Shown: piece after piece, positions 2,742 through 51,552 of the stretch
Layout: each line of letters starts with the position of its first letter
Numbering within the stretch: the first letter of the stretch is position 1
Source: Candidatus Nealsonbacteria bacterium
Lineage (GTDB): Bacteria > Patescibacteriota > Minisyncoccia > Minisyncoccales > JANBVM01
Length of the DNA stretch: 64,000 bases
Direction: 5' to 3'
NCBI GenBank assembly: GCA_026016225.1
Contig: CP061210.1
Location: forward strand, 66,000 to 129,999
The notes under the pieces: generated by a model
The model's input: the letters and a program-made list of their open reading frames with translations, nothing else
What the model was told of the DNA's origin: nothing
Databases searched by the model: none
Made by a program: the position numbers and the translations under genes

Positions 2742-3368
2742 TTAATAATAAATAATATTCTCGTTTAAGTCTACTATCCCTGTTACAAAATGAGTAGCTA
2801 CCGTTTCTCCTAATAAATTCTTGAGAGGCTCTAAACACTTTATTCTTTGAGTTCTATCAATCCATTCTTGGGTTATTTCCTCTTCCCTAAGAGTTATAGC
2901 AAAGAAATAATAATCGGTAAGCTGAGATAGATTTCCATTTTCAGACTCTATAAAAACCCTGCAATTCTTCCCAGAAGACCTAACAGCTTCATCTATAGCC
3001 TTGGCGGTGTCAAGATTACACTCCTTTATTTGTCCCATAGAAACGCTCTGCTGAGGAAAATATTTATTCAAATTGGCTGTTTGGTAGGCAGGACCGAATC
3101 GACAGGAAAACCAGTAACCGGTAGGTTCTTTCACGATATGGACCAGGTTAACTAGATGGTCTTCCTTTAGAAAATCACCGTACATTTCTATTGCCTTCTG
3201 TCCTGTATGCTGTCTTGCTATGGCAAAAATCTTCCTGAGCTCCTCATCTGTAATAGGAGAAAGCTCTCTAGGTGAAGTCTCCGCTTGGTTAAAATACTGG
3301 AAAAAGAACAGGGTTCCTACTCCTATCACAAACAGAACGCCAGTTAATAATATCAATTTTTTATTCAT
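2742..3368 (-). CDS. N-terminally anchored/exported protein of unknown function, paralog of 3665-4297
   Basis: N-terminal hydrophobic helix (LILLTGVLFVIGVGTLFFF). Shared blocks with its neighbour include LVNLVHIVKE, SC.FG.AY.T.NL and GQIK.C...TAKAID. Four Cys positions are conserved. Confidence 0.55.
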   Translation of the reverse strand: MNKKLILLTGVLFVIGVGTLFFFQYFNQAETSPRELSPITDEELRKIFAIARQHTGQKAIEMYGDFLKEDHLVNLVHIVKEPTGYWFSCRFGPAYQTANLNKYFPQQSVSMGQIKECNLDTAKAIDEAVRSSGKNCRVFIESENGNLSQLTDYYFFAITLREEEITQEWIDRTQRIKCLEPLKNLLGETVATHFVTGIVDLNENIIYY

Positions 3369-3524
3369 GTCTCTTTTTTATGTGATATTTATTTCTCTCT
3401 TTGACCTTTAGAAAAATATAAACCTCTTTATTAAGATAACACAGTCAATAAATCTCGGCAAGCTAAAATTAACCAATGTTTACTAGTTTTAAATCTTTAT
3501 TTGTTAATTTTCCAGAGTCTTTAG

Positions 3525-33551: not shown

Positions 33552-36500
33552 TTAAACACAGACCATTGAAACAACTTTATCTTTTTCTCCTAATTTCATA
33601 ATTCTTACTCCCTGGGTTGCCCGGCTCAATTTTGAAATTGACCCAATCTTTATTCTAATTACGTGGGCTTGTTGGGAAACGGCTATTAAATCTTCTTCTT
33701 CCGTCAGAATTTTTGAAGCAACCAGCCTCCCTATTTTAGGGATTATTTTCGCTGTCTTAACTCCTACTCCACCTCTTTTCTGCAAACCATACTCTTTTAA
33801 ATCTGTTCTTTTACCATAACCATTTTCAGTCACTACCAATAAATATTGTTTAACTTTTAATTTTTTGCCTTTTTCCGCCAACTGGCGGATTGGTTTTATT
33901 ATATCCATTCCTATTACCTCGTCTCCTCCCTCAACCTGAACTCGAGATGAAGATTTTTTCAATCTGATTCCTCTTACTCCGGCGGCTGACCGCCCCATAG
34001 GTCTTATATCTTTTTCTCTAAACCTTATTGACTGACCATTTTTAGTTACTAAAATTATTTCATCTTCTCCCGTAGTTTTACAAACTTTTTTCAGTGAATC
34101 TCCCTTTTTTAAGGAAATAGCGATTAGTCCCGAACGACGAATATTTTTGAATTCCTCTAAAGCGGTTTTTTTGATTACCCCGTTTTTAGTTACCATTACT
34201 AAATATTTTGCCTCGATTTTTTCACTCTTTTTGCTTAAAGATATTAAAGATAATACTTTTTCTTGAGGGGAAATTTCTAAGAAATTAAGTAAACCCCTGC
34301 CCTTGGCAGTTCGGGTTCCCTCGGGGATTTCGTAAGCTGGAATTCTGAAAACCTTTCCTGAGTCAGTAAAGAATAAAAGACTATCATGAGTGTTGGCAAT
34401 CAAAAAGTGTTCCACGATATCTTCTCCCACTGTTTTCATTCCTAAAATTCCTTTCCCTCCTCTTCTTTGAAGCTTATATGTCTTAGGGTTTATTCTCTTT
34501 ATGTAACCACCCTGAGTTAGAGTAATAATCGTTTCTTCTCTGGGAATTAAATCTTCTTCTGATATTTCACCTATTTTCCTTTTAAAAACTTTTGTTCTTC
34601 TCTCATCTCCAAAGTTTTCTTTCACTTCTTTTAATTCTTTTTTAATAACGCTTTTTATCTTTTGGGGACTCTTTAAAACAGCTGTTAGTTCTTTGATTTT
34701 AGCACGCAACTCTTTCAGTTCATCTTCAATTTTTTTCCTTTCTAACCTTGCTAAAGCTGCTAGTTTTGTATCTAAAATTGCGTTAGCCTGAATTTCTGTT
34801 AGTTTAAAACGCTTCATTAAGTTTTTCTTTGCGTTTTCTCTATCTATTGATTTTTTAATCGTTGATATTACCGCGTCAATTTTTTGCAAACACTTGTGTA
34901 AACCTTCTAAAATATGGGTTCTCTCTTTTGCCTTTTCTAATTCATGCTTAATCCTCCTTAAGACAACTTCTTTCCTGTGTGAAATAAAATATTCTAAAAC
35001 CTCAACAAAATTTAAAATTTTGGGTTGAATTCCATCAACCAAAGCTACCGTATTTAAATGAAAAGTTCTCTGTAAGTCGCTAAATTTAAAAAGACGATTC
35101 AAAATCCTATTAGCTATTACGTCTTTTTGGAGTTCTATGACAATTCTCATTCCTTCTTTGTCTGATTCATCTCTAATGTCTTTTATTCCTTTAATTCTTT
35201 TTTCTGAAACCAATTTAGCAAATTTGGCAAGCAAAGTTGATTTTTGAACCTGAAACGGAATTTCAGTAATTAAAATCTTTTGTTTTCCTTTTTCATCTTC
35301 AATAATTTCTGTTTTACCTCTTACTAAAATAGGTCCTTTACCTTGAGAATAAACTTCCATTATCCCTCTCTGGTCATAAATGAAACCTCCCGTTGGAAAA
35401 TCCGGACCCTGAACAAATTGAAAAACATCCTCGACATCAGCTTTTGAATGTTCGACTAAATAAATTAAAGCATCACAGATTTCATTTAAATTATGGGGAG
35501 GAATATTGGTTGCCATCCCAACCGCAATTCCCAAACAACCATTTAATAAAAGTTGGGGAAGAGGAGAGGGCAAAACAACGGGTTCTTTTCTCGTACCGTC
35601 ATAATTATCAATAAAATCAACTGTATCTTTTCCAATATCTTTTAACATTTCTTGACCCTCTTTCGAAAGCCGCATTTCTGTATTGTGACTAATAAATCCA
35701 TTAGAAATGAAAGAATGACATATACTATCTACTCTTAAAGAATAAACTCGTTCCTCTCCTTGTTGTTTTACAGAAACAATCTGCTCAAATAAATAATGGT
35801 TTTTTAAGAAATTCTTAACAAGCTTTAAATCGAATTGGTCCAGTATTTGTTCCAAACGATTATAATATTTTCTAAGTTTTGGATATCTATCCAAATTGTG
35901 GGTTTTAAGCCAAACTTTATCTGCTCGCTTTATGTTCAATCCCTGATACTTTTCCCTTATATACTGGGCAAGATACGGAATATAATCAGTTTTAGACATT
36001 ATTCTGTGATCGGAATTAAGTTTTGAAAATTCCTCTAATCTTTGTTTCTTTCGTCTTGAAATAAAACCAATTTGTTTTTTAAATAAACCAAAATTGTTAT
36101 GCCCATGAATAAATAATCTTAATGTTGTTCTTGTTCTTTCGGGTCTTAAAAATGAATCTATGCCAAATCTTAAAAATATGATTTGTAACTGCTCAAGTAA
36201 TTTCTTACTACAAGAAGTATAGACTATTTCTATTGATCTTTGTTTTTTATCTTTATTGCGGTGCTTACAAAGATAGATAGATCCATCTCCCTCAAAAAGT
36301 CCTTTCAGAAAAGCAGATGTTGATTTTTTGCTTGCATGAAATATAATTTCAGGGATTTGTTTTTTAGAAGCACGAGCTCTTTTTAATCCTAAACTTTCCA
36401 GAAATTCAGTAATATAATTTGAATGAACTTCTAAAGCTGTATGGTCCTGTTTTCCGTAACCTAAAGGCCCCCTCTTAAATTCATGTAATCGGCAAGTAGG

Positions 36501-37439
36501 AAAAACTTTTTTAAAACTATTTTTAAAAGCATTTATGAATTCTTTGTCTGTGTTTGCGAAACCAAAGCATTTTTCTTTAGATTTCTTATGGGAAACATAG
36601 CCCTCTGATAAAATTGCTCCCAGCAGAAAAGCTAAATCAGAATTCATCCGAGAGGGTAGTTTGTGAATAACAAAATGTCTGTTTTTTATTTTGGGATAAT
36701 ATTTCTTAAGACTTGGTTCTTTTCGCTGCCATAAAGTATTGTTGTTTCTATCAATAACTGCAAAATTGCCCTTTTTAATTTCTTTTAATAATTTCCATTT
36801 AAATATAGGTCTGCCCTCGTTATCTTTTTGAAGAGTTAAGATTGGATGATTATTCGTTCCTTTCAATTTATAACCCCTAAATGTTTTCACTTCTAAAACA
36901 GGATGAACACCTGAATCAAACCACTTTGATGCTGAATTTATTTTTTGAGCAAAGGACAAAACATTTAAAGAAATATTCTCTTTATCAGAAATTTCATCAA
37001 TTCTTTCCAAACAACGATTGGTCACTATAATAGAATCACCAGTAATACAATATCTCATCGCCGCATATTCACCTGGGTCATCAATTGAGCCCATGTTTCC
37101 TTGACCCTGAATCAAAGGGTATCTCAGGGAAAAATCCTGTGCCATTCTTACTGCAGCTCCATACACTGCCTGGTCGCCGTGTGGATGATAGCGGCCCAAG
37201 GTGTTTCCTACGACAGTTGCTGATTTTCTGGATTTTGCATCATGACGCAATCCCATATCATACATGGCATACAAAATTCTTCTCTGGACAGGTTTTAAGC
37301 CGTCTCTAACATCGGGCAAAGCTCGAGAGATAATCACTGACATAGCATAATCAATATATGATTCCTTCATCTCTTTGGTAATCTCTCTTGTTTGTACTTT
37401 AGCAAGTTCCTTATTTGGTTCTTTTTTATCTTTTTTCAT
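33552..37439 (-). CDS. gyrA: DNA gyrase subunit A, interrupted by a 456-aa intein
   Basis: [19 protein letters not shown], then AAMRY|CITGDS...FISHN|TEMRL. The C-terminal beta-pinwheel repeats are present. Confidence 0.9.
35682..37049 (-). mobile_element. GyrA intein with an intact-looking LAGLIDADG homing endonuclease domain
   Basis: Cys1 (tgt at 37049-37047), block B TNNHP, LAGLIDADG motifs [10 protein letters not shown] and [10 protein letters not shown], terminal SHN followed by Thr (aat at 35684-35682). Confidence 0.85.
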
Positions 37440-40328: not shown

Positions 40329-41426
40329 TTACTTATCCTTGATTAATTTTAAACTCATTCGATGTTCTTTCTCGTCAATTGATAAAATTTGGAATTTGTA
40401 TTTTTTCTCTATCTCTAAAACATCTACCATTTTCTCGCCTTCAAACTCAGAAACGTGACAAAGTGCTTGAATCTCTTTATCTATTTGAATGAAAGCTCCA
40501 AAAGGATTAAGTTTAGTTACCTTGCCTTTAATTATTTCGCCTTTCTTATATTTTTTCTCAATGCCTTTCCAGGGGTCTTTTTTTAAGGCTTTTAGAGATA
40601 AAGAAACCTTACCGTTAGATATATCAAGAATTTTTGCTTTTACTTTATCACCTACTTTAACAGTTTCTGCTGGGTCCTCGATGATTTTCCAATCCAACTC
40701 GGAAATATGAATTAAGCCCTCAAGCTGCTCCTTTTTGGAAGAAGCTTTCTCCTTCGCCGAGGATTTGGAGGACAAGGGAAATTTAATAAATGCTCCAAAA
40801 TTAGTAATACCAGTAATTTCTCCCTTCACAACGTCTCCTATTTTATAACTTTTCAATATTTCTTTTATCTTGTCTAAATCTTTTGCTTTCTCTGATAAAA
40901 TAATTTGTTCTTTCTCTGGGAATAAATCAAGTATCTTTACATCAAGCTCTTGACCGATGAATTCTTGAAGCTCTTTCAAAATTTTTGCTTTATCTCCTCC
41001 CTCAACTTTTGGGTAGTGCTCACTTGCTAATTGAGAAACTGGCAAAAAAGCAGAAATGCCTGAAATCTCGCTTATTAAACCGCCTTTATTTGCTCCTAAA
41101 ATTCTTATTTTTATCAATTCACCTTTCTCCTTCTTCTCTCTAAGGCTTTCAAAAGATAACTCCCTAAATGCCCCACTTACCGATAATTCAATGAATCCCT
41201 CTTCTGCATCAAGCTCGATTATCTTGCTGAAAATTTTATCACCAATTTTTAAATTTTTTAATTTTTCTTTAGCTTGATAAAACTCTCTTCCATAAATTTT
41301 TCCTGTTCCAATTGCTCCTAAATCCAAAAAAATTGAGGACCTTCCCTTACCAACAACTGTTCCTTCAATAATATCTCCGATTTTTGCCGGTTTCAAAAAA
41401 TTGTTTTTTTCTAATAATTCTTTCAT
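40329..41426 (-). CDS. S1 RNA-binding domain protein (ribosomal protein S1-like, four S1 repeats)
   Basis: Repeated G.I..G.V......G.F..L motifs. Confidence 0.7.
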   Translation of the reverse strand: MKELLEKNNFLKPAKIGDIIEGTVVGKGRSSIFLDLGAIGTGKIYGREFYQAKEKLKNLKIGDKIFSKIIELDAEEGFIELSVSGAFRELSFESLREKKEKGELIKIRILGANKGGLISEISGISAFLPVSQLASEHYPKVEGGDKAKILKELQEFIGQELDVKILDLFPEKEQIILSEKAKDLDKIKEILKSYKIGDVVKGEITGITNFGAFIKFPLSSKSSAKEKASSKKEQLEGLIHISELDWKIIEDPAETVKVGDKVKAKILDISNGKVSLSLKALKKDPWKGIEKKYKKGEIIKGKVTKLNPFGAFIQIDKEIQALCHVSEFEGEKMVDVLEIEKKYKFQILSIDEKEHRMSLKLIKDK

Positions 41427-41553
41427 ATTAATATTATCTATTAGATGCTATTTATCTTACAATGTTTCATTTAAATTTTCAACCCCATTAATGGTTGAAT
41501 TATAAGGAGATTTATGATAAGAGTAAATTATATTCTTATTCTTATTTACCCCT

Positions 41554-42207
41554 ATGCAAATTATTTGGTATGGTCATTCTTTATTTCAAATAACAACTAA
41601 TCCTGAGAGAAACAGCCAGGTAAAGATTGTAATTGACCCCTATGATAAAAGTATTGGATTAAGAGTACCGAAACTTGAAGCTGATATTGTATTAGTTACC
41701 CATCAGCATCATGACCATAATAATGTTGCAGCTGTTGCTGGAAATCCTTTTTTAATTGAAGGACCTGGAGAGTATGAGGTAAAAAATATTTTCATTCAGG
41801 GAATCTTGAGTTCTCACGATAATTCTCAAGGAAAAGAAAGAGGCACAAATACAATATATACTATTGAAAGTGAAAATATTAAGCTTTGTCATTTGGGAGA
41901 TTTTGGACAAAAAGAATTAACTGATGAGCAACTAGAAAAAATTGGTGAAGTTGATATTCTAATGGTTCCGATAGGAGGAAATTATACTCTTTCTGCAAAA
42001 GAGGCTGCTAAGATAATGTCTCAATTAGAACCGAAAATTACTATCCCAATGCACTACGCTATCCCAAAATTAAAAATTAAGTTAGATTCCTTAGATAATT
42101 TCTTAAAGGTTTTTGGGATAAAATCTTTATCCCCAATAAATAAACTTTCAATCAAGAAAAAAGATATATCAACTGACGAAGCAAAAATAATAGTTTTTAA
42201 AAAATGA
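41554..42207 (+). CDS. Metallo-beta-lactamase-fold hydrolase (UPF0173-like)
   Basis: [12 protein letters not shown] motif; 217 aa. Confidence 0.7.
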
Positions 42208-42692
42208 AAAAAGTAGAAAATATTATAAAACCATTTTTAAAAAAGGATATTCCCGACGTTCGCCCCGGCGATACGGTAAAGGTTTTCCAGAGAATCAAAG
42301 AGGTTCCAAAGAAGGACAAATCTTCTAAGAGAGAAAAGGGTAAAGAAAAAATCCAAATCTTCGAAGGAATAATTATTGCCAGAAAACATAAAAAAGAAAT
42401 TGGAGCTACAATCACGGTCAGGAAAGTAATCAGTGGTGTTGGGGTAGAAAGAATTTTTCCTCTTCACTTACCAACAATTAAAAAAATAGAAATAATAAGA
42501 AAAAGCAAGGTAAGGAGGGCAAAACTCTATTACCTAAGAAAAGCTAAAGGAAAAAGGGCAAGGCTAAAAAGAAAAGAATTTGCCAAAGCAATAGCAGAAG
42601 AGAAATCAAAAGAAGAAGAAATTAAAAAAGAATGTACTAAAGAAGAACCACAAGAGGAACAAGATGAAACCAAAAAGAACTCAAAAAATTAA
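42204..42692 (+). CDS. rplS: 50S ribosomal protein L19 with a K/E-rich C-terminal extension
   Basis: RPGDTVKV...ERIQIFEG-like core. A tail of about 45 extra residues overlaps the next ORF. Confidence 0.8.
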
Positions 42693-43323
42693 ATGGTCGC
42701 CAGAACTTGCTTATGCTGTTGGACTCATTAGTGCTGATGGCTGTCTATCTATTGATAGAAGACATATAAATTTTACTTCAAAAGATATTAAACTCCTAAA
42801 GACTTTTAAGAAATGTCTTGGGTTAAGGAATAAAATAGGCCGCAAGAGTAGTGGTAAATCATCTGAAAAGAAATATTATCAAGTTCAGTTCGGAGATGTT
42901 ATTTTTTATCGTTGGCTTAATGAAATAGGCCTCACCCCACATAAAAGTAAAACTATTGGAAAGTTAAAAATTCCTAATAAATATTTTTTTGACTTTTTAA
43001 GAGGTAATTTTGATGGAGATGGATATTTCTATTCTTATTGGGATAAACGCTGGAAAAGTAGTTTTATGTTCTATACTATATTTAGTTCCGCTAGCCGAAC
43101 TTTTATCGAGTGGTTAAGAAAAAGAATAAAAACGTCACTTGAAATAAAAGGGTATATAGTTCAAAACAGAAAGGAAAATTTTTGGCAATTAAAGTATGCG
43201 AAAAGAGAATCAAGAAAATTATTATCAAAACTTTATTACTCTAATAAAATTCCCCTCTTAGAAAGAAAATATTTAAAAATAAAAAGAGCCGAGGTGGAGG
43301 AACTGGAAGACTCTCATCCTTGA
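42664..43323 (+). CDS. Free-standing LAGLIDADG homing endonuclease (double-motif)
   Basis: [15 protein letters not shown] and [12 protein letters not shown]. The last 11 codons and the stop lie inside tRNA-Leu(GAG). Confidence 0.75.
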
Positions 43324-43371
43324 GGTGGATGTGTCAGCAATGACGTGCGGGTTCGACTCCCGCCCTCGGCA
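43288..43371 (+). tRNA. tRNA-Leu(GAG)
   Basis: Acceptor gccgagg/cctcggc, anticodon stem catcc/ggatg, loop ttgaggt, long variable arm, T-loop ttcgact. Confidence 0.85.
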
Positions 43372-43477
43372 CAATAAATTAGAAATTAATACGATTGCTC
43401 CGCAACCTTTAGTTAATGAGTTTATGAGAAAAGATTTTACTCATCACTCATCTACTCATCAACTAATTACCAAATAC

Positions 43478-43549
43478 GGGCAATTAGCTCAGTGGAAGAG
43501 CGCGTCGCTTACATCGACGAGGTCGCAGGTTCAAGTCCTGCATTGCCCA
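43478..43549 (+). tRNA. tRNA-Val(TAC)
   Basis: Acceptor gggcaat/attgccc, anticodon loop cttacat. Confidence 0.85.
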
Positions 43550-43562
43550 CACTATTAAAAAT

Positions 43563-44552
43563 TTATTTTAATCTTTCCAAAGCCCTCTTATATATCTTTT
43601 CATTAACCGGAGTTTTAACTCCTGTTTTTTTTCCGAGGTTGACCACAGCTCCATTATAGTAATCAATCTCATCTAAATCCTTTGGTTTTCCGCCTCTTCC
43701 TTTGCTAACAATCTTAGTAATAATGCCTCGGAAAGGTAGTAAAAAAGAAGTTGGTACTAAACCAAATAAGCTAGCGAAAAGTTTTACGGGATAACGAGGG
43801 AAATTAAGAAATTCTCCTCCAGAAAGTTTTACTGTTTTAATATATTCTCTTAAAGCTTTTACTTCTTCTTTAAATATTTCTTTGTTTTTAAATCCATCTT
43901 CGACTGAAGCTCCCCTTGAAGCTGCTGCCATACCAATTAAGTTTAAAAATAATTTTGAAAATTCTAAATTCTTGGCATCTTCTGAAGGGAATTCTTTAAT
44001 TTCAAAACCAGCTTTTTCAAAAATTTCAACAATATCTTTAATATCTTCATCATCCGAAGTTTTTGAAAGAGCAATTCTAATAGGTAAGGAATATTTAATA
44101 TAGGTTTTATTTCCTGATTCTCTTTTATCTATTGGATTAAAAAGGGCAATTCTAATTATTCTTACTTTTTCTGCCTCTTTCCCTAAAACTTGTCTGAGGG
44201 ATTCTTTTGCTTCAGAGATAGCTGCAATACCATTTTGAGAAATTAAGAGAGAGGGTGGTTTTCTTCTACATCTTGTAAAGTAATATTTTATTGGAGGAGA
44301 AACCGGATTTTTGGTTGTTAAAAAAATAGTATCTGGTTCAACTTTAGCTTTAAATTCGGTATCTTTAATAATATTTTCTTCAAAAACCTGAGGTATTTTT
44401 TTCTTCCTCTCAATAAAAAGCTTCTTCTCCTTAACCAACTTTACCTCTCTTCCTCTAGCCACCCCCAAAACATTAGCTGAATTCCTGAGTTCAAAAGCAA
44501 ACATTGTCCCGGTCCTTCCTCCAACTCCGATTATGGCAATTTTCTGTTCCAT
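43563..44552 (-). CDS. NAD(P)-binding oxidoreductase, ketopantoate reductase (ApbA/PanE)-like
   Basis: IAIIGVGGRTG Rossmann motif and a C-terminal DYYNGAVVNLGKKTGVKTPVN block. Confidence 0.5.
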   Translation of the reverse strand: MEQKIAIIGVGGRTGTMFAFELRNSANVLGVARGREVKLVKEKKLFIERKKKIPQVFEENIIKDTEFKAKVEPDTIFLTTKNPVSPPIKYYFTRCRRKPPSLLISQNGIAAISEAKESLRQVLGKEAEKVRIIRIALFNPIDKRESGNKTYIKYSLPIRIALSKTSDDEDIKDIVEIFEKAGFEIKEFPSEDAKNLEFSKLFLNLIGMAAASRGASVEDGFKNKEIFKEEVKALREYIKTVKLSGGEFLNFPRYPVKLFASLFGLVPTSFLLPFRGIITKIVSKGRGGKPKDLDEIDYYNGAVVNLGKKTGVKTPVNEKIYKRALERLK

Positions 44553-44699
44553 ATTTTATAAATATATCATTATTTAATAATTAAATGAACTCTATGAGCG
44601 AGGTGAATTGATTTAAAGTAAATTTTGTGATAAATTTAAAACGAATTTTCAAAAACTAATCCTATCCCCTAAATTATATATTCTAAATTCTGGATTTTT

Positions 44700-44785
44700 G
44701 GAGGGTTGGCAGAACGGCAATTGCGCTGGTTTCGAACACCAGTAGGAGTAATCCTTTGTAGGTTCAAATCCTACACCCTCCGCCA
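44700..44785 (+). tRNA. tRNA-Ser(CGA), CCA encoded
   Basis: Acceptor ggagggt/accctcc, anticodon loop ttcgaac, long variable arm, 3' gcca. Confidence 0.8.
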
Positions 44786-45023
44786 GTCAGAATTTTTCAA
44801 GGATTTATTCGCCTCGCGCCTCACTGCGGCTCGGCGCTCGGCCACCAATTTATACTCACTTTGAGGCAAAAAAGAAAATTGTTGATTAAGTAAAATATGG
44901 TTCGAGCCGATATTTTTTAGAAATGACGATTTAACAAAATAAACCCTTGCTTATTTTGCGGGGGGGGGAAATATAAGTAAAGGTCGCGTAAAAAATAATT
45001 AACTAATTTTTAAGAACAAAAAT

Positions 45024-46256
45024 ATGATTAACCAACAACTGCTTGATTACATCAAGCAACAATTACGACAGGGTGTAAGCAAAGAAGAAATTAAAAATTC
45101 TCTTTTAACTAATGGTCGGCAGGCAAAAGATATTGATGAAGCTTTTAATTCAATAGGACAGCTAGAGCAACCAGAATCGTATGGTGCACCAGGAACCACT
45201 TTTCCGCAATCGGACATTTCTTCTGTAAAGCCCCAAAAAAAGAAACTGGCTTTGATTATCTCTGTGATTTTGGGAGTCATTATTATAGGAGGCGGAGTAT
45301 TCGGCTATTTTTATTATTTCCAGTCACCGGAAAGAATTGTCCAGAAAATGACTGAAAAGATGACCGAAATAAAATCTCTGGAATATACAGGACAAATCAC
45401 AGTTGAAATTGAAACCAGTAATCTTCCTGCGCTTTCTCCGTTAGGAAATGGCAACCTTCAACAACCGAAAGAACCATCATCGCTCAAACAAACGGGTAAG
45501 TTTTCGATAGATTTTAGCGGTGCTTCAGATTTGCACGATTTAAATAATCCGAAGGCACTTTTCAAGTTTGATATAAACACAGATGTTTTGCCGCAAAGTT
45601 TTGGATTAGAAGTAAGAACTATTGAGAATATCACCTATTTGAGACTAAGTAATGTTCCTGATTTGGGATTTTTTGATTTATCGTTCTTAAAAAATCAATG
45701 GATAAAAGTTGATCCTGAAGCAATAAAAAAGCAATTCGGATTAGAAAAATTAGATGAACAACTTAAAGAAGTACAGAAAGAACAAGAATTATCGCCTGAG
45801 CAGATAGAACAGATAAGGGAAGTTGTTGCTTCTATAAAGATCTTCGAAATTACAGAGAAATTGCCAAGCGAAAAAATCGACGAAGCAAATACTCACCACT
45901 ATAAATTCGTAATAGACAAAGAGGGACTCATAGAGTTATTTACAGAAATAAGTAAAATAATACAGAATAAATCTCTGACCGAAAAGGAATTACAAGAATT
46001 AAACGAGTCATTACAGGCAATAGAAAGGTCCGAAGGAGAAATTTGGATCGGGAAAAAAGATTTGCTGCTCTATAAAATTCTCTTAAGTTTGAATATCAAA
46101 GAAACAGAAAAGACAAAATCTGAAGGTAAAATCACTATGACAGTCCAATTTAAAAACTATAATAAAGCTGTACAAATAGATATTCCGACATCCGTAAAAA
46201 CACTGGAAGAAATTCTGGGTGAATTGTTTGGTGGATTATTTGGCGATGGTTTATAG
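45024..46256 (+). CDS. Membrane-anchored extracytoplasmic protein of unknown function
   Basis: A short N-terminal helical domain, one TM helix (LALIISVILGVIIIGGGVFGYFYYF), then a roughly 310-aa ectodomain. Confidence 0.4.
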   Translation: MINQQLLDYIKQQLRQGVSKEEIKNSLLTNGRQAKDIDEAFNSIGQLEQPESYGAPGTTFPQSDISSVKPQKKKLALIISVILGVIIIGGGVFGYFYYFQSPERIVQKMTEKMTEIKSLEYTGQITVEIETSNLPALSPLGNGNLQQPKEPSSLKQTGKFSIDFSGASDLHDLNNPKALFKFDINTDVLPQSFGLEVRTIENITYLRLSNVPDLGFFDLSFLKNQWIKVDPEAIKKQFGLEKLDEQLKEVQKEQELSPEQIEQIREVVASIKIFEITEKLPSEKIDEANTHHYKFVIDKEGLIELFTEISKIIQNKSLTEKELQELNESLQAIERSEGEIWIGKKDLLLYKILLSLNIKETEKTKSEGKITMTVQFKNYNKAVQIDIPTSVKTLEEILGELFGGLFGDGL

Positions 46257-46419
46257 AACCTCGGACCAGGCTTTCAGTTACCGAATCAACAACCGCAACA
46301 ATTACCTGAAGGAACAATGGATTTTAATAATGAATTTTTGCCCGCCTGCCTGCCCTGCGAAGCAGGACTTGGGATGGGAAGAGACTACATTATATATAAT
46401 ATAAGTAATCTATAAGTCT

Positions 46420-46791
46420 ATGTTTAAGTTTTTAAAAAAGAAAAAAGAACCCAAGAACTTAAAAGAAATTTTATCTCAATTTAATGATATAAAGGGAAGT
46501 TTTAGTAGAATCTCCAAAAAGCTGAAAGATTTGGAGAACAAGAATAAATTTTCGATTCAAGGAATAGGTGTAGTCAGATTTAATCCTTTTAAAGAAAGCG
46601 GCGGAGACCAAAGTTTCTCAATTGCCCTTTTAGATGGCAATAAGGATGGAGTGGTCATCAGTAGTCTCTATGGGAGAGAGGGAAATAGAGTTTTTGCAAA
46701 GCCAATAAAAAATGGTAGGTCAGAATATTTACTGACCGAAGAAGAAAAAAGGGCAATAGAACAAGCAAAAAAAAATGGTAAAAACAAATAA
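46420..46791 (+). CDS. DUF4446-like protein
   Basis: GVVRFNPFKESGGDQSFSIALLD...VISSLYGRE pattern, recalled from memory. Confidence 0.5.
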   Translation: MFKFLKKKKEPKNLKEILSQFNDIKGSFSRISKKLKDLENKNKFSIQGIGVVRFNPFKESGGDQSFSIALLDGNKDGVVISSLYGREGNRVFAKPIKNGRSEYLLTEEEKRAIEQAKKNGKNK

Positions 46792-48274
46792 AAACTTAAT
46801 TAATCGTCCTCCGGTGGTGGTAGTATTAGGTCATATTGACAGCGGGAAAACAACTCTTCTTGACCAGGTCAGAAAAACAAAGGTTGCCGAAAAGGAATCC
46901 GGCGGCATTACCCAACATATCGGTGCATACCAGATTGAAAAACAAGGAAAAAAAATTACCTTTATTGATACCCCTGGTCATGAAGCTTTTTCTCAAATGA
47001 GGTCAAGAGGAGCTAAAATAGCTGATATTGCTATTCTGGTAATCGATAGCTGTAAAGGAGTGGAAAAGCAAACAGAAGAAGTTATTTCTCATATTAAAGA
47101 AGCTAAAGTTCCACCAATAGTTGCCTTTAATAAAACCGATAGACCAGAAGCTAATCCTGAAAAAGGAAAAAGAGAATTGCAAAAAGAAGGTATTTCGGTT
47201 GAATCATTAGGAGGAAAAGTGCCTTCAGTTGAAATTTCGGCAAAAACAGGACAAGGAGTCGAAGATCTTTTAGACTTAATTCTACTCATGGCAGAGATGG
47301 AAAACCTAAAAGCAGACATCTCAAAGAAAGCTACGGGAGTAATTATTGAATCTTATTTAGACAGCCAGAGAGGTCCAACAGCCACCTTAATTTTAAACGA
47401 AGGGGTATTAAGGTTAGGAGATGCTATAGCTACTCTTTCAGTATTTGGAAAAGTTAAAAGTTTAGAAGATTTTCAAGGGAAACAAATCTTTGAGGTCTTT
47501 CCGGCAGACCCTGCGGTCTTTTTGGGTTTAGAAGATGTACCAAAGGTGGGAGAAAATATTATGGTTTTCTCTAATTTAGAAGAAGCAAAAAGCTATATTC
47601 AACCTTCGCTAAAAGAAAAGGTGATACAGGAAAGATTTGAATTAAAACCTGAACAAAAAGTTCTAAACCTAATCTTAAAAACTGATGTTTTAGGGTCAAT
47701 TGAAGCAGTTAATGAAGTTTTAAAAAAACTGCCTCAAGAAAAAATTGTCTTAAGGATTTTAAAATCAGATGTTGGAGATATTAATGAAAATGACGTTAAG
47801 TTAGCAAAAAGCTCGAAGGCTCTAATTTTGGGTTTTAGAGTGAAAATAAATCCTGTTGCTAAAAAACTGCTCCAGAGAGAGGAGACTAAGGTTGATGTAA
47901 TGAACTTTGATATAATTTATGATTTGGTGGAAAGAGTTAGAAAATTTATGGAAAAGACCTTAGAGTATAAAACTATTAGAACCGACATTGGAAAGATGAA
48001 AGTTTTGGTAACCTTTTGGAGTAAAAAGAATCGCCAGATTGTTGGAGGAAGAATTATTGAAGGAGAAACAAAAAGGGGAACCTTAATTGAGGTTTTGAGA
48101 GATGAAGAATTGATTGACCGAGGGAAAATGATTAATCTTCAGAGAAATAAAAAAGATATTGAAAGTGTGGCGAAAGGTGAAGAGGCTGGAATATTATACG
48201 AAGGAAATAAAAAAATCGAAAAGGGAGATACCTTAATATTCTATACAAAAGAGAAAAAGAAAATGGAACTGTAA
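46775..48274 (+). CDS. infB: Translation initiation factor IF-2 (short form lacking the N-terminal region)
   Basis: RPPVVVVLGHIDSGKTTLLD, DTPGHEAF, NKTD. Confidence 0.85.
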   Translation: MVKTNKNLINRPPVVVVLGHIDSGKTTLLDQVRKTKVAEKESGGITQHIGAYQIEKQGKKITFIDTPGHEAFSQMRSRGAKIADIAILVIDSCKGVEKQTEEVISHIKEAKVPPIVAFNKTDRPEANPEKGKRELQKEGISVESLGGKVPSVEISAKTGQGVEDLLDLILLMAEMENLKADISKKATGVIIESYLDSQRGPTATLILNEGVLRLGDAIATLSVFGKVKSLEDFQGKQIFEVFPADPAVFLGLEDVPKVGENIMVFSNLEEAKSYIQPSLKEKVIQERFELKPEQKVLNLILKTDVLGSIEAVNEVLKKLPQEKIVLRILKSDVGDINENDVKLAKSSKALILGFRVKINPVAKKLLQREETKVDVMNFDIIYDLVERVRKFMEKTLEYKTIRTDIGKMKVLVTFWSKKNRQIVGGRIIEGETKRGTLIEVLRDEELIDRGKMINLQRNKKDIESVAKGEEAGILYEGNKKIEKGDTLIFYTKEKKKMEL

Positions 48275-48448
48275 ATCTCAAGACGTATCAAACGAGTTAA
48301 TCAATTAATAAAACGCGAGATATCTCGAATTGAGGAAATTTTAGCAGAGTTGAAAAAGAAGGGAAAATAAGGTAAAATGAAAGGACGAATAGGGCGCGGT
48401 AGCGAAGGCGGTAGTCTGCCTGCCCGCTAGTCGGCCTGAGCTGGTCAT

Positions 48449-48521
48449 GGCCACGTACCCAAGTAGGTAAGGGGGCAGTTTGCAAAACTGCTATACGTCG
48501 GTGCAAATCCGACCGTGGCCT
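48449..48521 (+). tRNA. tRNA-Cys(GCA)
   Basis: Acceptor ggccacg/cgtggcc, anticodon stem gcagt/actgc, loop ttgcaaa, discriminator T. Confidence 0.8.
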
Positions 48522-48539
48522 CAAAGCTCTGGCAGGCGG

Positions 48540-48582
48540 GCAAAACTATTATACGTGGGTGCAATTCCCATCCGCTCCTCCA
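48540..48582 (+). pseudogene. tRNA-Cys-like 3' portion (anticodon GCA through acceptor, with TCCA encoded); no convincing 5' half
   Basis: gcaaaactattatacgtgggtgcaattcccatccgctcctcca aligns to the 3' part of the adjacent tRNA-Cys. Confidence 0.35.
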
Positions 48583-48592
48583 TTTGGTTTTT

Positions 48593-49237
48593 ATGAAATC
48601 TCATAAACACTCACTTAAACAAGATTTTTTTGATAAATGGTCCCCGGAAATGGCTTATGTTTTAGGATTTTGGTTTGCAGATGGATACATGCGAAGAAGT
48701 GGATCTTATAAAATTGTATTTTATGCAAAAGATTATGAGATGCTTACTAAAATTAGAAATGTAATGGGTTCAAGCCATCCATTTTATAGAGATAAAAGAT
48801 ATGAAAGTTTCCAATTTACCGTATACTCAAAACGACTGTTCCAGAAGTTATTAGAATTGGGAGGAATTCGGTGTAAAAGTAAAACAATGAAGTTTCCAAA
48901 AGTACCCTTCCAGTATTTACCAGATTTTATTAGAGGCTATTTTGACGGTGATGGAAGCGTATTTTATACAACTTATATACATAGCAAAAATAAAAAACTT
49001 CGTCGGGAATTAAGAAGTAACTTTACTTCTGGCAATAAAGAATTTCTTGAATCTCTTCAAAATATCTTTATAAATGTTCTTGGATTTACTAAAAAAAAGA
49101 TATGTCCTTACGATGAAAGGGCGTCCTGGAAATTAGGGTACGGAACAAAAGATACTTTAAGCTTGCTACGATTCATGTATTATCCTAATTATCCAATAGG
49201 ATTGGATAGAAAGTCTTCCTTTTTAAAAAATAGATAA
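48593..49237 (+). CDS. Free-standing LAGLIDADG homing endonuclease (double-motif)
   Basis: MAYVLGFWFADGYM and FIRGYFDGDGSVF. The start is taken at MKSHKHS; the track ORF start at 48515 reads through tRNA-like sequence. Confidence 0.75.
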   Translation: MKSHKHSLKQDFFDKWSPEMAYVLGFWFADGYMRRSGSYKIVFYAKDYEMLTKIRNVMGSSHPFYRDKRYESFQFTVYSKRLFQKLLELGGIRCKSKTMKFPKVPFQYLPDFIRGYFDGDGSVFYTTYIHSKNKKLRRELRSNFTSGNKEFLESLQNIFINVLGFTKKKICPYDERASWKLGYGTKDTLSLLRFMYYPNYPIGLDRKSSFLKNR

Positions 49238-49250
49238 AATAAATATAATT

Positions 49251-49336
49251 GCCGCGGTGGCGGAATTGGCATTACGCGAGTGACTTAAAATCACTTGGGA
49301 TTATATCCCGTGTGGGTTCGAGTCCCACCCGCGGCA
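49251..49336 (+). tRNA. tRNA-Leu(TAA)
   Basis: Acceptor gccgcgg/ccgcggc, anticodon loop cttaaaa, long variable arm. Confidence 0.85.
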
Positions 49337-49342
49337 CAAACT

Positions 49343-49381
49343 AAAAAACCACCTACGCCAGTTGGCGGGGGTGGTTTTTTT
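49343..49381. terminator. Bidirectional rho-independent terminator
   Basis: A-run, then stem ccacctacgcc / ggcgggggtgg (10 of 11 pairs), loop agtt, then T-run. It lies between convergent genes. Confidence 0.55.
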
Positions 49382-49416
49382 ATTAAGCTCTTAATTTTTA
49401 AAGTTTAAGATAAATG

Positions 49417-49971
49417 TTATCTTTCTAAGATTTCAATATATGTTCTTTTTGCTCCAAAAGCAAGAGCTTGGGAATATTCAGAAAACCAAATATCAATGTG
49501 ATAATTACCCTTTTTCCAACTCATTCTATCCTCAACAATAAAAACCTTATCATCATATATTTCAGGAATTCTAATCTTTGTACCAAAAGGCAAAAAATTA
49601 TTTGCTATAACTCCCTCTCTCACAAAAGTCCCGGATGCAGTAATATAGGGACTATCATCGGTTTGACAGGGTGTACTTGAATAAGCAGTTATTACTACCC
49701 GTAACTTTTCGGTAGCCTTTAAAGGCGGGTTATTTGGATTGGAAAGAGAAGCTAAAGTGTTTTCTTGAAAAACAACAAAACTCTGGATACTATCCAGTTC
49801 TGATTGATTATTACTTTTTAACTCAGAAAGAGAGTAAACTTTAAACAAAACCCCAAAGAATATTAGAAAAACTAAGCTAATCAACGCCCAAACCTTTGGG
49901 CGTTTGCAATTAAACCCTTGCTTTTTACAAGAGCCTTGTTTTTTTCTTTTTTTAGGACCAGAAATTTTCAT
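49417..49971 (-). CDS. 3D-domain protein (MltA/RlpA-like fold), membrane anchored
   Basis: ITAYSSTPCQTDDSPYITASG...GTKIRIPE...FIVEDRM. Confidence 0.65.
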   Translation of the reverse strand: MKISGPKKRKKQGSCKKQGFNCKRPKVWALISLVFLIFFGVLFKVYSLSELKSNNQSELDSIQSFVVFQENTLASLSNPNNPPLKATEKLRVVITAYSSTPCQTDDSPYITASGTFVREGVIANNFLPFGTKIRIPEIYDDKVFIVEDRMSWKKGNYHIDIWFSEYSQALAFGAKRTYIEILER

Positions 49972-50091
49972 CTTAAAAACCCTTATTTTTAGGGTTGAAT
50001 TATCCTAACTCATTCACCAAAGCATGTCAATACTAAAGGCTAAAAAATAAAATGGGCAGGTTCAAAAAAGCAAACTCATTAATTGAAGTTA

Positions 50092-50163
50092 AGCGGGAGA
50101 CGGGGATTGAACCCGCGACCTTCTCGTTGGCAACGAGACGTTCTACCACTAAACTACTCCCGC
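50092..50163 (-). tRNA. tRNA-Gly(GCC)
   Basis: Acceptor gcgggag/ctcccgc, anticodon loop ttgccaa. Confidence 0.85.
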
Positions 50164-50178
50164 AGATTCATAAAGAGG

Positions 50179-50250
50179 TGCCGCGGGCCAGAATCGAACT
50201 GGCGACCCTATAGTTTTCAGCTATATGCTCTACCACTGAGCTACCGCGGC
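50179..50250 (-). tRNA. tRNA-Phe(GAA)
   Basis: Acceptor gccgcgg/ccgcggc, anticodon loop ctgaaaa. Confidence 0.85.
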
Positions 50251-50265
50251 TATCTGCAAATTATG

Positions 50266-50339
50266 TGGACCCAGAGGGAGTCGAACCCTCGACCTTCGGT
50301 ATGCCATACCGACACTCTAACCAACTGAGCTATGGGCCC
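50266..50339 (-). tRNA. tRNA-Ala(GGC)
   Basis: Acceptor gggccca/tgggtcc with G3:U70, anticodon loop atggcat. Confidence 0.8.
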
Positions 50340-50348
50340 TTCAATTGA

Positions 50349-50422
50349 TGCCCTCGGGGGGACTCGAACCTCCAACCTAGGCGTTAGGAGTGCCTTGCTC
50401 TATCCTGTTGAGCTACGAGGGC
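50349..50422 (-). tRNA. tRNA-Arg(CCT)
   Basis: Acceptor gccctcg/cgagggc, anticodon loop ctcctaa. There is one mismatch in the T stem. Confidence 0.75.
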
Positions 50423-50526
50423 AATTCCTACAGAAATTGTTTTTAAGTATCAAATATTACTTTCAAAAATATAATAGCAACTTCTGGTCTTGTTGACAAT
50501 AGAAGTTAATGATAAAATAAAAACAT

Positions 50527-51552
50527 ATGGAAAAATCACCAATTGTTGAAATAGCAAAAAGAGTTTGTCCTGCGGTAATAACTATTGTTATTAGCAAGGA
50601 CTTACCCAAAATAGAAGGGTATTACATTTTTCCTTTCGGCGGACGGCAATTTGTTATTCCTCAAATAGAAAAGAGAGGGAAAGAAAAAACAAAAATTGGA
50701 GGAGGTTCAGGATTTGTTGTTTCTCCTGACGGTTATGTTATAACCTGCAACCATGTGGTTAAAGATTCAACAGCCGATTATACGGTAATTTTAGAACCAA
50801 CAAAAAAATATCCTGCTAAGGTTTTAGCTAAAGACCCATTAATTGATGTAGCTATCTTAAAGATAGAAGGAAAAGATTTTCCCTGCTTAGAAATAGGCAA
50901 TTCCTCAAAAATTGAATTAGGAGAAACTGTAGTAGCGATTGGAAATCCTCTGGGGGAATTTGAAGACACCCTTTCTTCTGGAATCGTATCCGGCTTAAGT
51001 AGAAAGATTACAGCTTACGGAGGATTATCGTTTAGAGCTACAAGTTTAAGAGGCTTAATTCAAACTGATGCAGCAATAAATCCCGGCAATAGTGGAGGAC
51101 CCTTAGTAAACATGGAAGGAAAAGCTATCGGAATTAATACTGCAATGGTTATGGGAGCCCAAAATATTGGATTTGCTATACCAATTAACTACGCCAAAAG
51201 AAATCTGGAAGAAGTAATAAAATATGGAAAGATAAAAAAGCCGTTTTTAGGAGTAAGATATTTTCTTTTAAACAAAGAAATAGCCAAAGTAAATAAACTT
51301 CCCGTTGACTATGGAGCTTTAATTGTCAGAGAAAGCTTAGGGGAAAAAGCAATAGTAAAAGAATCACCTGCTGATAGAGTGGGGCTGAAAGAATATGACA
51401 TTATTTTGGAATGTAATGGAAAAAAAATAAATGAAGAAAATCCTTTAGCTGACATTTTACAGAAACATAAGATTGGAGAAAAGGTTTCGTTAAAAATTCT
51501 TAGAGAAGAAAAAAAAATAAATGTAAAAGTGCAATTAGAAGAGAAAAAATAG
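50527..51552 (+). CDS. HtrA/DegP-family serine protease with one PDZ domain
   Basis: GSGFVV, TDAAINPGNSGGPL, and a C-terminal PDZ-like segment. Confidence 0.85.
   Translation: MEKSPIVEIAKRVCPAVITIVISKDLPKIEGYYIFPFGGRQFVIPQIEKRGKEKTKIGGGSGFVVSPDGYVITCNHVVKDSTADYTVILEPTKKYPAKVLAKDPLIDVAILKIEGKDFPCLEIGNSSKIELGETVVAIGNPLGEFEDTLSSGIVSGLSRKITAYGGLSFRATSLRGLIQTDAAINPGNSGGPLVNMEGKAIGINTAMVMGAQNIGFAIPINYAKRNLEEVIKYGKIKKPFLGVRYFLLNKEIAKVNKLPVDYGALIVRESLGEKAIVKESPADRVGLKEYDIILECNGKKINEENPLADILQKHKIGEKVSLKILREEKKINVKVQLEEKK

Follow-up and report, generated by a model that had tools for sequence, protein, structure and literature searches.

How does a free-standing endonuclease gene come to lie flush against a tRNA gene, and to take its last codons and its stop codon from it? 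This question is raised by a locus of Candidatus Nealsonbacteria bacterium (assembly GCA_026016225.1, contig CP061210.1, positions 66,000 to 129,999 of the forward strand), a stretch of 64,000 nucleotides that is referred to below as the window and numbered from its first letter. Here, a LAGLIDADG gene, designated homing endonuclease gene 1 (HEG1), occupies the junction between rplS and tRNA-Leu(GAG). The first-pass annotation of this DNA had suggested homing or insertion aimed at tRNA-flanking sequence, and the survey of related loci supports this idea with one fixed spacer per family, with empty sites and with signs of transfer. HEG1 probably belongs to a family of site-specific, free-standing homing endonucleases that has its home at the rplS|tRNA-Leu(GAG) junction in Patescibacteria (Candidate Phyla Radiation, CPR).

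Position of HEG1 and its family

The locus consists of the following features, all on the forward strand:

42204..42692, + strand: rplS (ribosomal protein L19; Pfam Ribosomal_L19, E=3.4e-35), with a K/E-rich C-terminal tail
42654..42658, + strand: Shine-Dalgarno-like GAGGA, 5 nt 5' of the HEG1 ATG and within the rplS coding sequence (sequence reading)
42664..43323, + strand: HEG1, free-standing double-motif LAGLIDADG gene of 219 aa (open reading frame and Pfam)
42736-42738 and 43018-43020, + strand: codons of the HEG1 catalytic Asp residues D25 and D119
43288..43323, + strand: segment common to HEG1 and tRNA-Leu(GAG) nt 1-36, comprising the 11 last codons and the stop
43321-43323, + strand: TGA stop of HEG1, identical to U33-G34-A35 of tRNA-Leu(GAG)
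43288..43372 (ARAGORN) or 43288..43371 (Rfam tRNA), + strand: tRNA-Leu(GAG), intact, class II
43478..43550, + strand: tRNA-Val(TAC), conserved 3' partner of tRNA-Leu(GAG) in occupied and empty loci alike
43609..43632, + strand: terminator-like hairpin followed by a T-run (consensus scan only)

The double-motif open reading frame (ORF) of 219 aa and its overlap of 29 nt with rplS, in which the end of rplS is the start of HEG1, had both been reported in the first-pass annotation and are present in the ORF list and by Pfam. Likewise, its claim that HEG1 draws its 11 final codons and its TGA stop from the sequence of tRNA-Leu(GAG) is borne out by ARAGORN, by Rfam and by the sequence itself. This second overlap amounts to 36 nt, with the context ...cat cct TGA ggt.... 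ARAGORN and Rfam agree on 43288 as the 5' end of the tRNA gene, which scores 45.5 bits with the Rfam tRNA model (gathering score 29).

The family survey, based on one genome per GTDB species, yielded at least 554 coding stretches, of which the best-scoring 80 loci were analysed; the counts of motifs, relics and intact genes given below refer to 81 copies or loci. At E<=1e-3, 2994 database proteins are homologous to HEG1, with identities that are typically 55-70%, and many of their C-termini look like translated tRNA-Leu 5' ends. In 78 of the 80 loci, tRNA-Leu(GAG) follows directly 3' of the endonuclease gene on the same strand (as AAG in one locus), the remaining two being cut off by a contig edge, and rplS lies just 5' of the gene in about 70 of the 80. 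The labels of these loci span many different CPR groups. The adjacency of HEG1 and tRNA-Leu is a trait of the family, far beyond what chance would give.

The extent of the overlap with the tRNA gene varies. Once the true stops had been located, 35 of the 78 ORFs were found to end within the tRNA. The stop is the TAA of the D-loop, at nt 15, in 16 of them and the TGA of the anticodon, at nt 36, in 10. In 30 of these 35 the first nucleotide of the tRNA is a first codon position. The other 43 ORFs stop 0-31 nt 5' of the tRNA, without frame preference. Could the arrangement be a coincidence of a very compact genome, in which the overlap is irrelevant to the biology of the gene? In two loci that lack the endonuclease gene, rplS itself ends inside tRNA-Leu(GAG), by 10 nt in L082 (~3411-3420) and by 15 nt in L090 (~3310-3324), which indicates that an overlap between ORF and tRNA belongs to the compact locus and is not peculiar to the endonuclease; the usual spacer measures 1-10 nt, and the position of the stop differs among family members. 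However, compaction may account for the overlap and not for the adjacency. With 78 of 80 family members at one site, with all examined contexts of a sister family (HEG2, see below) at a site of their own and with a tRNA-derived relic upstream of the gene, the version of this explanation that concerns the adjacency is already refuted, and the explanation as a whole is highly improbable.

Empty sites

From metagenomes, an independent scan with an rplS profile retrieved 17 CPR-like loci with the order rplS, tRNA-Leu(GAG/AAG) and usually then tRNA-Val(TAC). The endonuclease gene is missing from 15 of these and present in two. The closest relative (L081), with an rplS 79% identical to that of the window, has an empty site. 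Spacers in the empty loci measure 1-10 nt in eight cases and 27-230 nt in five, and a sensitive hmmsearch of six-frame translations detected no endonuclease remnants in them. A comparison with relatives that lack the ORF, as proposed in the first-pass annotation, therefore finds clean empty rplS|tRNA-Leu junctions. The same annotation had held that its idea would fall if the genes were ancient, syntenic and non-mobile. The locus is indeed syntenic and the gene is under purifying selection, but its presence in only two of the 17 loci does not fit such a description. The hypothesis that the endonuclease is a core gene was rejected on the basis of the rplS-based metagenome scan, as most rplS-tRNA-Leu loci are empty.

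Two endonuclease-free spacers contain tRNA-like sequence of their own. The spacer of L139 (1561-1790) carries nt 1-17 of tRNA-Leu twice in tandem, with a hairpin (cccgctcttcgcgaagagcggg) after each copy, and that of L103 (963-1051) a degenerate tRNA-Leu 5' half with an inserted hairpin. These fragments may have been left behind by lost elements, or else by a different small insertion.

The HEG1 protein

HEG1 matches the Pfam family PF14528 (LAGLIDADG_3) with 37.7 bits (cut-off 22.5, E=2.4e-9), and LAGLIDADG_1 only weakly. Its two motifs end in ...GLISADG (D25) and ...FDGDG (D119). The pairs D25/G26 and D119/G120 are invariant across 32 aligned homologues, HEG2 included, and both LAGLIDADG motifs are intact in all 81 genomic copies. 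An AlphaFold (AF2) model built on the homologue alignment (pLDDT 90.6, pTM 0.88) predicts a pseudo-dimeric fold in which an alpha-beta-beta-alpha-beta-beta-alpha unit is doubled, with the tRNA-encoded tail as the end of the last helix at lower confidence. The top match of HEG1 is I-Tsp061I (PDB 2DCH), both by sequence (E=3.8e-9) and by fold (TM 0.66-0.70, identity 15-18%), followed in Foldseek by I-AniI, the bI3 maturase and I-DmoI. Like HEG1, I-Tsp061I and I-DmoI are single chains of about 200 aa with a pair of LAGLIDADG motifs, each of which contributes a catalytic Asp; in contrast to HEG1, which is free-standing and reaches from a protein gene to a tRNA gene, they are encoded within rRNA introns. 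Judged by its sequence and by the predicted structure, HEG1 looks like a functional, intact monomeric two-domain LAGLIDADG enzyme in which both catalytic aspartates are present.

A half-tRNA relic upstream of the endonuclease gene

In occupied loci, the distance from the rplS stop to the start of the endonuclease gene is usually 50-190 nt (median 75), and this spacer often opens with a terminator-like hairpin. The motif GGTATACGCTATTACCTTGAG(G) occurs in the spacer of 57 of the 81 loci, compared to three of 1620 shuffled windows, and elsewhere in the loci the pattern finds essentially only the genuine tRNA-Leu(GAG) genes. It corresponds to the D-loop, the D-stem, the 5' strand of the anticodon stem and the anticodon loop of tRNA-Leu(GAG). 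The consensus of these relics is GGTATACGCTATTACCTTGAGG, and the relics of L001, L008, L013, L052 and L055 have also kept the 5' strand of the acceptor stem. In agreement with this, a profile of the tRNA-Leu 5' half matches 44 of the 81 upstream regions, compared to none of 81 shuffles and four of 81 internal controls. In most lineages, the endonuclease gene is consequently flanked on both sides by the tRNA-Leu 5' half, in direct orientation. The similarity of the relic to tRNA-Leu breaks off after G36/G37 of the anticodon loop, which suggests that the ancestral insertion was probably into this loop.

The relic may serve as a promoter. A -10-like hexamer lies directly 3' of TTGAGG in 23 loci, giving TTGGTA-N18-TATAAT, and 17 nt after TTGAGN in ten loci. 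Relics are more similar to each other (identity 0.80) than to the tRNA of their own locus (0.67), although the search pattern itself fixes some of the positions compared. This mutual likeness suggests that the relic is an old and selected part of the unit, most simply a promoter, from which the endonuclease gene would be transcribed. The distance from relic to ORF is 3-111 nt, mostly 14-55 nt.

Terminator and relic are missing from the window and from its nearest relatives (L012, L019, L042 and L063), and in the window, L012 and L019 the endonuclease gene overlaps rplS. The clade of the window thus appears to have lost both elements, and with their deletion HEG1 would be read from the rplS message. 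The GAGGA within rplS would allow the translation of HEG1 to be coupled to that of rplS, and HEG1 is presumably co-transcribed with the tRNAs; the hairpin at 43609..43632 is likely the end of an rplS-HEG1-tRNA-Leu-tRNA-Val transcription unit. Processing by RNase P may affect a message whose stop sits in the tRNA. Promoters of the genes' own are not indicated in the window, in which the number of sigma-70-like sites (14) is not above the expectation from shuffled sequence (9.4 +/- 3.2).

The intron question

The first-pass annotation had raised a second possibility, namely the decay of former tRNA introns, and had proposed that the flanks be examined for group I cores with Rfam. In the stated form this is not supported, as intron cores are lacking and the tRNAs are intact; what survives of it is the relic that ends in the anticodon loop. 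A permissive Rfam scan of positions 41000-51000 of the window returned tRNAs and noise only, with no group I or group II intron core, and an equally permissive scan of eight relic-bearing loci found no group I or group II introns either; Intron_gpI has no match in the window or in these related loci. None of 82 loci contains an interrupted tRNA, and every tRNA-Leu is complete. HEG1 itself lies outside any intron or intein, flanked by rplS and the intact tRNA.

In a more elaborate version, tRNA-Leu(GAG) would once have carried a self-splicing group I intron in its anticodon loop, with the gene as its ORF, and this intron would have lost its ribozyme after duplication or retro-conversion had provided an uninterrupted tRNA downstream. 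This would agree with the relic 5' half, which stops where tRNA introns sit, with a nearest solved structure that comes from an archaeal rRNA intron, the other top matches being intron- or intein-encoded as well, and with the abundance of LAGLIDADG-bearing introns in the rRNA genes of CPR bacteria (PMC11270868). It is nevertheless improbable. The negative Rfam scans of both the window region and the relic-bearing loci were made at a permissive E-value, the gaps of 3-111 nt between relic and ORF and of ~0-30 nt between ORF and tRNA are too short to hold a ribozyme core, no interrupted tRNA occurs in any of the 82 loci, and HEG2 sits between two intact tRNAs.

HEG2 and other residents of tRNA spacers

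The window contains three LAGLIDADG modules, namely HEG1, a paralogue designated HEG2 and a domain within the gyrA intein. The features concerned are:

48449..48522, + strand: tRNA-Cys(GCA), complete, left neighbour of the HEG2 site (Rfam tRNA 62.3 bits; ARAGORN)
48540..48582, + strand: tRNA-Cys relic comprising the 3' part only, with the anticodon GCA at one end and ...TCCA at the other
48593..49237, + strand: HEG2, LAGLIDADG paralogue of 214 aa, 32% identical to HEG1 (ORF, Pfam)
49251..49337, + strand: tRNA-Leu(TAA), 13 nt after the HEG2 stop
35682..37031, - strand: gyrA intein with a LAGLIDADG_3 domain, residues ~137-586 of ORF 33552..37439

As the first-pass annotation had described, HEG2 lies 10 nt 3' of a tRNA-Cys-like fragment and 13 nt before tRNA-Leu(TAA), and the third module, with its LAGLIDADG_3 domain, is found in the gyrA intein, which gives a weak tblastn match to HEG2. 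The tRNA-Cys-like 3' fragment is real; the complete tRNA-Cys(GCA) directly upstream of it had been missed. The T-arm of this relic (GTGGGTGCAATTCCCA) equals that of tRNA-Cys genes from other CPR lineages (L021, L167) and differs from that of the resident tRNA-Cys, which points to imported flanking DNA of a donor.

HEG2 has 1314 relatives at E<=1e-20. Apart from the window, homologues are found between tRNA-Cys(GCA) and tRNA-Leu(TAA) in five independent contexts, namely L052, L161/L162, L163/L164, L165/L166 and L167/L168, with spacers down to 1 nt and 7 nt, and the unit lies 3' of infB, with rbfA in between where it is present. In L001, L021 and L051 the site is empty and the two tRNAs are 12-21 nt apart. 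From these contexts, HEG2 appears to represent a sister family fixed at the tRNA-Cys|tRNA-Leu(UAA) spacer. No relics of tRNA-Leu(UAA) were found 5' of HEG2 in the other loci, and the tRNA-Cys fragment occurs in the window only.

Several observations concern the surroundings of HEG2. The infB gene of the window (46775-48274, 499 aa) is not followed by an rbfA ORF before tRNA-Cys, whereas the relatives L161-L165 run infB-rbfA-tRNA-Cys. An unusually G+C-rich stretch (gggcgcggtagcgaaggcggtagtctgcctgcccgctagtcggcctgagctggtcat, 48392-48448) without Rfam match lies 5' of tRNA-Cys in A+T-rich surroundings. In a member of the Staskawiczbacteria (L163, 2699-3238, - strand), an ORF fragment of a reverse transcriptase (RVT_1) is located a few hundred nt past the unit of HEG2 and tRNA-Leu(TAA).

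Other tRNA spacers are occupied as well. LAGLIDADG paralogues that are 46-50% identical to HEG1 are found in the same tRNA array, in L061 (4206-4853) between tRNA-Val and tRNA-Phe(GAA), with an overlap of 10 nt with tRNA-Phe, and in L080 (4905-5630) 3' of tRNA-Val(GAC). Furthermore, L001 (5728-6420) and L080 (6028-6735) contain ORFs of ~230 aa directly 5' of tRNA-Gly(GCC), with an N-terminal helix-turn-helix (HTH) and a LYWAEGS/LYWGEGT motif; the ORF of L001 ends 15 nt within the tRNA. Pfam gives only sub-threshold HTH matches for these two ORFs, which may represent a third type of gene that lives in tRNA spacers.

Signals of vertical descent and of horizontal transfer

The history of the endonuclease gene was compared with that of a single host marker, the short rplS. 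Mean pairwise identity is 57% for the endonuclease and for L19 alike, and the identities of the two are weakly correlated (Mantel r=0.24, p=0.001). Very close pairs show similar synonymous divergence (dS) in both genes, with ratios of nonsynonymous to synonymous divergence (dN/dS) of 0.05 and 0.10 for the endonuclease and of 0.04 and 0.06 for rplS. The G+C content of the endonuclease gene follows that of its host (r=0.80) at a level ~8 points lower.

Other pairs are discordant. Between L041 and L064, the endonuclease genes are unsaturated, with proportions of synonymous and nonsynonymous differences (pS and pN) of 0.53 and 0.14, as opposed to the saturated values of 0.93 and 0.35 for rplS. The reverse holds for L054 and L070, in which rplS has a pN of 0.11 and the endonuclease a pN of 0.32. 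Such discordant divergence is taken as a sign of horizontal transfer. In addition, similarity between endonucleases correlates with similarity between the adjacent tRNA-Leu genes (r=0.17 for the 5' half and 0.30 for the 3' half, p=0.001), while rplS similarity shows no correlation with tRNA-Leu similarity. This co-variation is what would be expected if endonuclease and tRNA-Leu move together by gene conversion, as is the case for T4 SegB (PMC2330249). The best-supported reading of these sequence comparisons is that the family would persist by a mixture of vertical descent and spread by gene conversion together with the tRNA.

The same data bear on a different explanation, in which the LAGLIDADG protein has been domesticated or benefits its host as an accessory, selected part of the tRNA-Leu/tRNA-Val expression unit, with a mainly vertical history and repeated loss in streamlined genomes. 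Its role might be that of a regulator with the anticodon arm of the relic as operator, of a trans-acting maturase for CPR rRNA introns or of a strain-exclusion nuclease. The dN/dS of 0.05-0.10, which matches rplS, the equal dS of close pairs, the mean identity shared with L19 and the amelioration of G+C to the host would all agree with such a history, as would the intactness of all 81 copies, the lack of pseudogene relics at empty sites, a conservation of the relic that extends past the two promoter hexamers and the lack of a visible difference in immunity between occupied and empty tRNAs. On the other hand, a gene that is found in two of 17 sampled rplS-tRNA-Leu loci and not in the nearest relative is not near-universal, and the invariance of both catalytic aspartates sets it apart from domesticated relatives of the WhiA type. 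Endonuclease divergence falls short of that of rplS in some pairs and exceeds it in others, paralogous families at other tRNA spacers have a presence/absence polymorphism of their own, and the data name no host function. Domestication is therefore rather unlikely, if still the foremost of the competing explanations.

A related and more speculative proposal, which we regard as doubtful, is that a nuclease-competent protein under ribosomal-protein-like selection heads the tRNA-Leu/tRNA-Val unit, the promoter of which consists of a half-tRNA remnant of the ancestral target of the enzyme, and binds this relic as an operator in autoregulation, being more than a selfish passenger, and that RNase P strips the stop codon located in the tRNA from the message and thereby leads to tagging by transfer-messenger RNA (tmRNA). 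Autoregulation of this kind is known from I-TevI, which acts at its own promoter. If the proposal were true, the dosage of the endonuclease would be tied to tRNA maturation, and the element would be a self-healing, self-limiting invader of tRNA genes, or gene drive, of a type undescribed for cellular bacterial chromosomes.

A model for the HEG1 family

For the site-specific homing endonuclease favoured here, the following course of events can be envisaged. An ancestral element would have entered the tRNA-Leu(GAG) gene within its anticodon loop, beside or exactly at position 37/38. The copy of the tRNA 5' half that it brought along would have healed the interrupted tRNA gene. The displaced 5' half would have turned into the promoter of the element, and the ORF would read into the healing copy up to the first in-frame stop, which is either the TAA of the D-loop or the TGA of U33-G34-A35. 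The overlap of ORF and tRNA would then require no special device, because gene and tRNA directly abut in a tightly packed locus. The unit of endonuclease gene and tRNA-Leu would spread into rplS-tRNA-Leu loci without endonuclease by gene conversion that the enzyme triggers, with target recognition probably via conserved tRNA-gene sequence, and would be inherited vertically within lineages. In the clade of the window, terminator and relic promoter would have been deleted, such that HEG1 is read from the rplS message and receives its tail and stop from the tRNA. The sister family of HEG2 would act likewise in the tRNA-Cys|tRNA-Leu(UAA) spacer.

Several points weigh against this model. No base separates the tRNA-Leu genes of occupied loci from those of empty loci on inspection by eye, and their identity to the relic consensus is alike (0.705 in occupied and 0.694 in empty loci, p=0.62), which leaves unexplained how carriers escape cleavage of their own site. 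The tracking of host G+C, the equal dS, the ribosomal-protein-like dN/dS and the lack of degenerate copies fit long vertical residence and selection at the level of the host equally well; as the analysed endonuclease loci are the top-scoring 80 among at least 554 stretches, decayed copies may have been missed. Furthermore, the relic is the more conserved copy, which is the reverse of what a native relic and a foreign healing copy would lead one to expect and calls for selection on the relic as promoter or operator. Finally, the window itself contains no relic, and the insertion into the anticodon loop is deduced from its relatives.

Relation to known systems

In CPR bacteria, LAGLIDADG genes are known from insertions in the 16S or 23S rRNA genes, frequently as part of group I introns (PMC11270868; PMC11809585; PMC7143001). 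Free-standing or tRNA-flanking copies are not mentioned in the papers found. They share with HEG1 the phylum, the superfamily and the targeting of conserved RNA genes, but are located inside the rRNA genes, whereas the HEG1 locus has no ribozyme. Group I introns also occur in the anticodon loops of bacterial tRNAs, for example in cyanobacterial tRNA-Leu(UAA) (PMC3984707). The insertion place is the same as the one deduced for the HEG1 family; in contrast to these introns, HEG1 lacks a ribozyme, its tRNA is uninterrupted and its ORF lies outside the mature tRNA save for 36 nt.

A functional parallel may be drawn with SegB of phage T4, a free-standing endonuclease that is encoded in a tRNA gene cluster, recognises conserved tRNA-gene sequence and drives the co-inheritance of neighbouring tRNA genes (PMC2330249). 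In both cases an endonuclease resides among tRNA genes, and here tRNA-Leu similarity follows the endonuclease and not rplS. However, SegB is a phage-borne GIY-YIG enzyme that is not fused to a tRNA, while HEG1 is a LAGLIDADG protein of a cellular chromosome, with one fixed spacer and, in its family, a tRNA-half relic upstream.

With respect to architecture, the mORF elements of fungal mitochondria are similar. These carry replacement termini for the genes they enter and make hybrid genes, as in Allomyces atp6 and in Glomus atp6, atp9, cox2 and nad3; a duplicated part of the target flanks the ORF, one copy completing the gene, often in phase, and the other remaining as a relic (PMC3630166). The HEG1 family likewise has a relic of the tRNA 5' half and a functional copy, with the ORF in phase in the 30 of 35 overlapping loci mentioned above. 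The polarity is mirrored, as the duplicated part is the 5' part of the downstream gene and not, as in mORFs, the 3' part of the upstream gene. Moreover, mORFs target protein genes where the HEG1 family targets a tRNA gene, and the better conserved of the two copies is here the relic, apparently a promoter. This partial duplication occurs in 57 of the 81 family loci, but neither in the window nor in its nearest relatives. The literature yielded no report of LAGLIDADG families in tRNA spacers or flanking tRNAs in CPR bacteria, nor of a half-tRNA relic. The kind of element is therefore known, both as a free-standing homing endonuclease gene and as an mORF-like duplication, and what is new is its setting and architecture.

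Significance

At least two large families, each of well over a thousand database proteins and one of them with at least about 550 species genomes, live in spacers beside tRNA genes on cellular chromosomes. Each keeps to a single spacer of its own, and one is bracketed by a half-tRNA duplication that has apparently been recycled as a promoter. They form a natural set of compact monomeric meganucleases with guessable targets, namely the tRNA-Leu and tRNA-Cys gene junctions. For annotation, they call for caution, as 35 of 78 endonuclease ORFs and sometimes rplS end inside a tRNA gene and may be mis-annotated. For the biology of these uncultivated, ultra-small bacteria, the families could serve as a marker for recombination and DNA exchange, and as a test case for the persistence of homing endonucleases under strong purifying selection.

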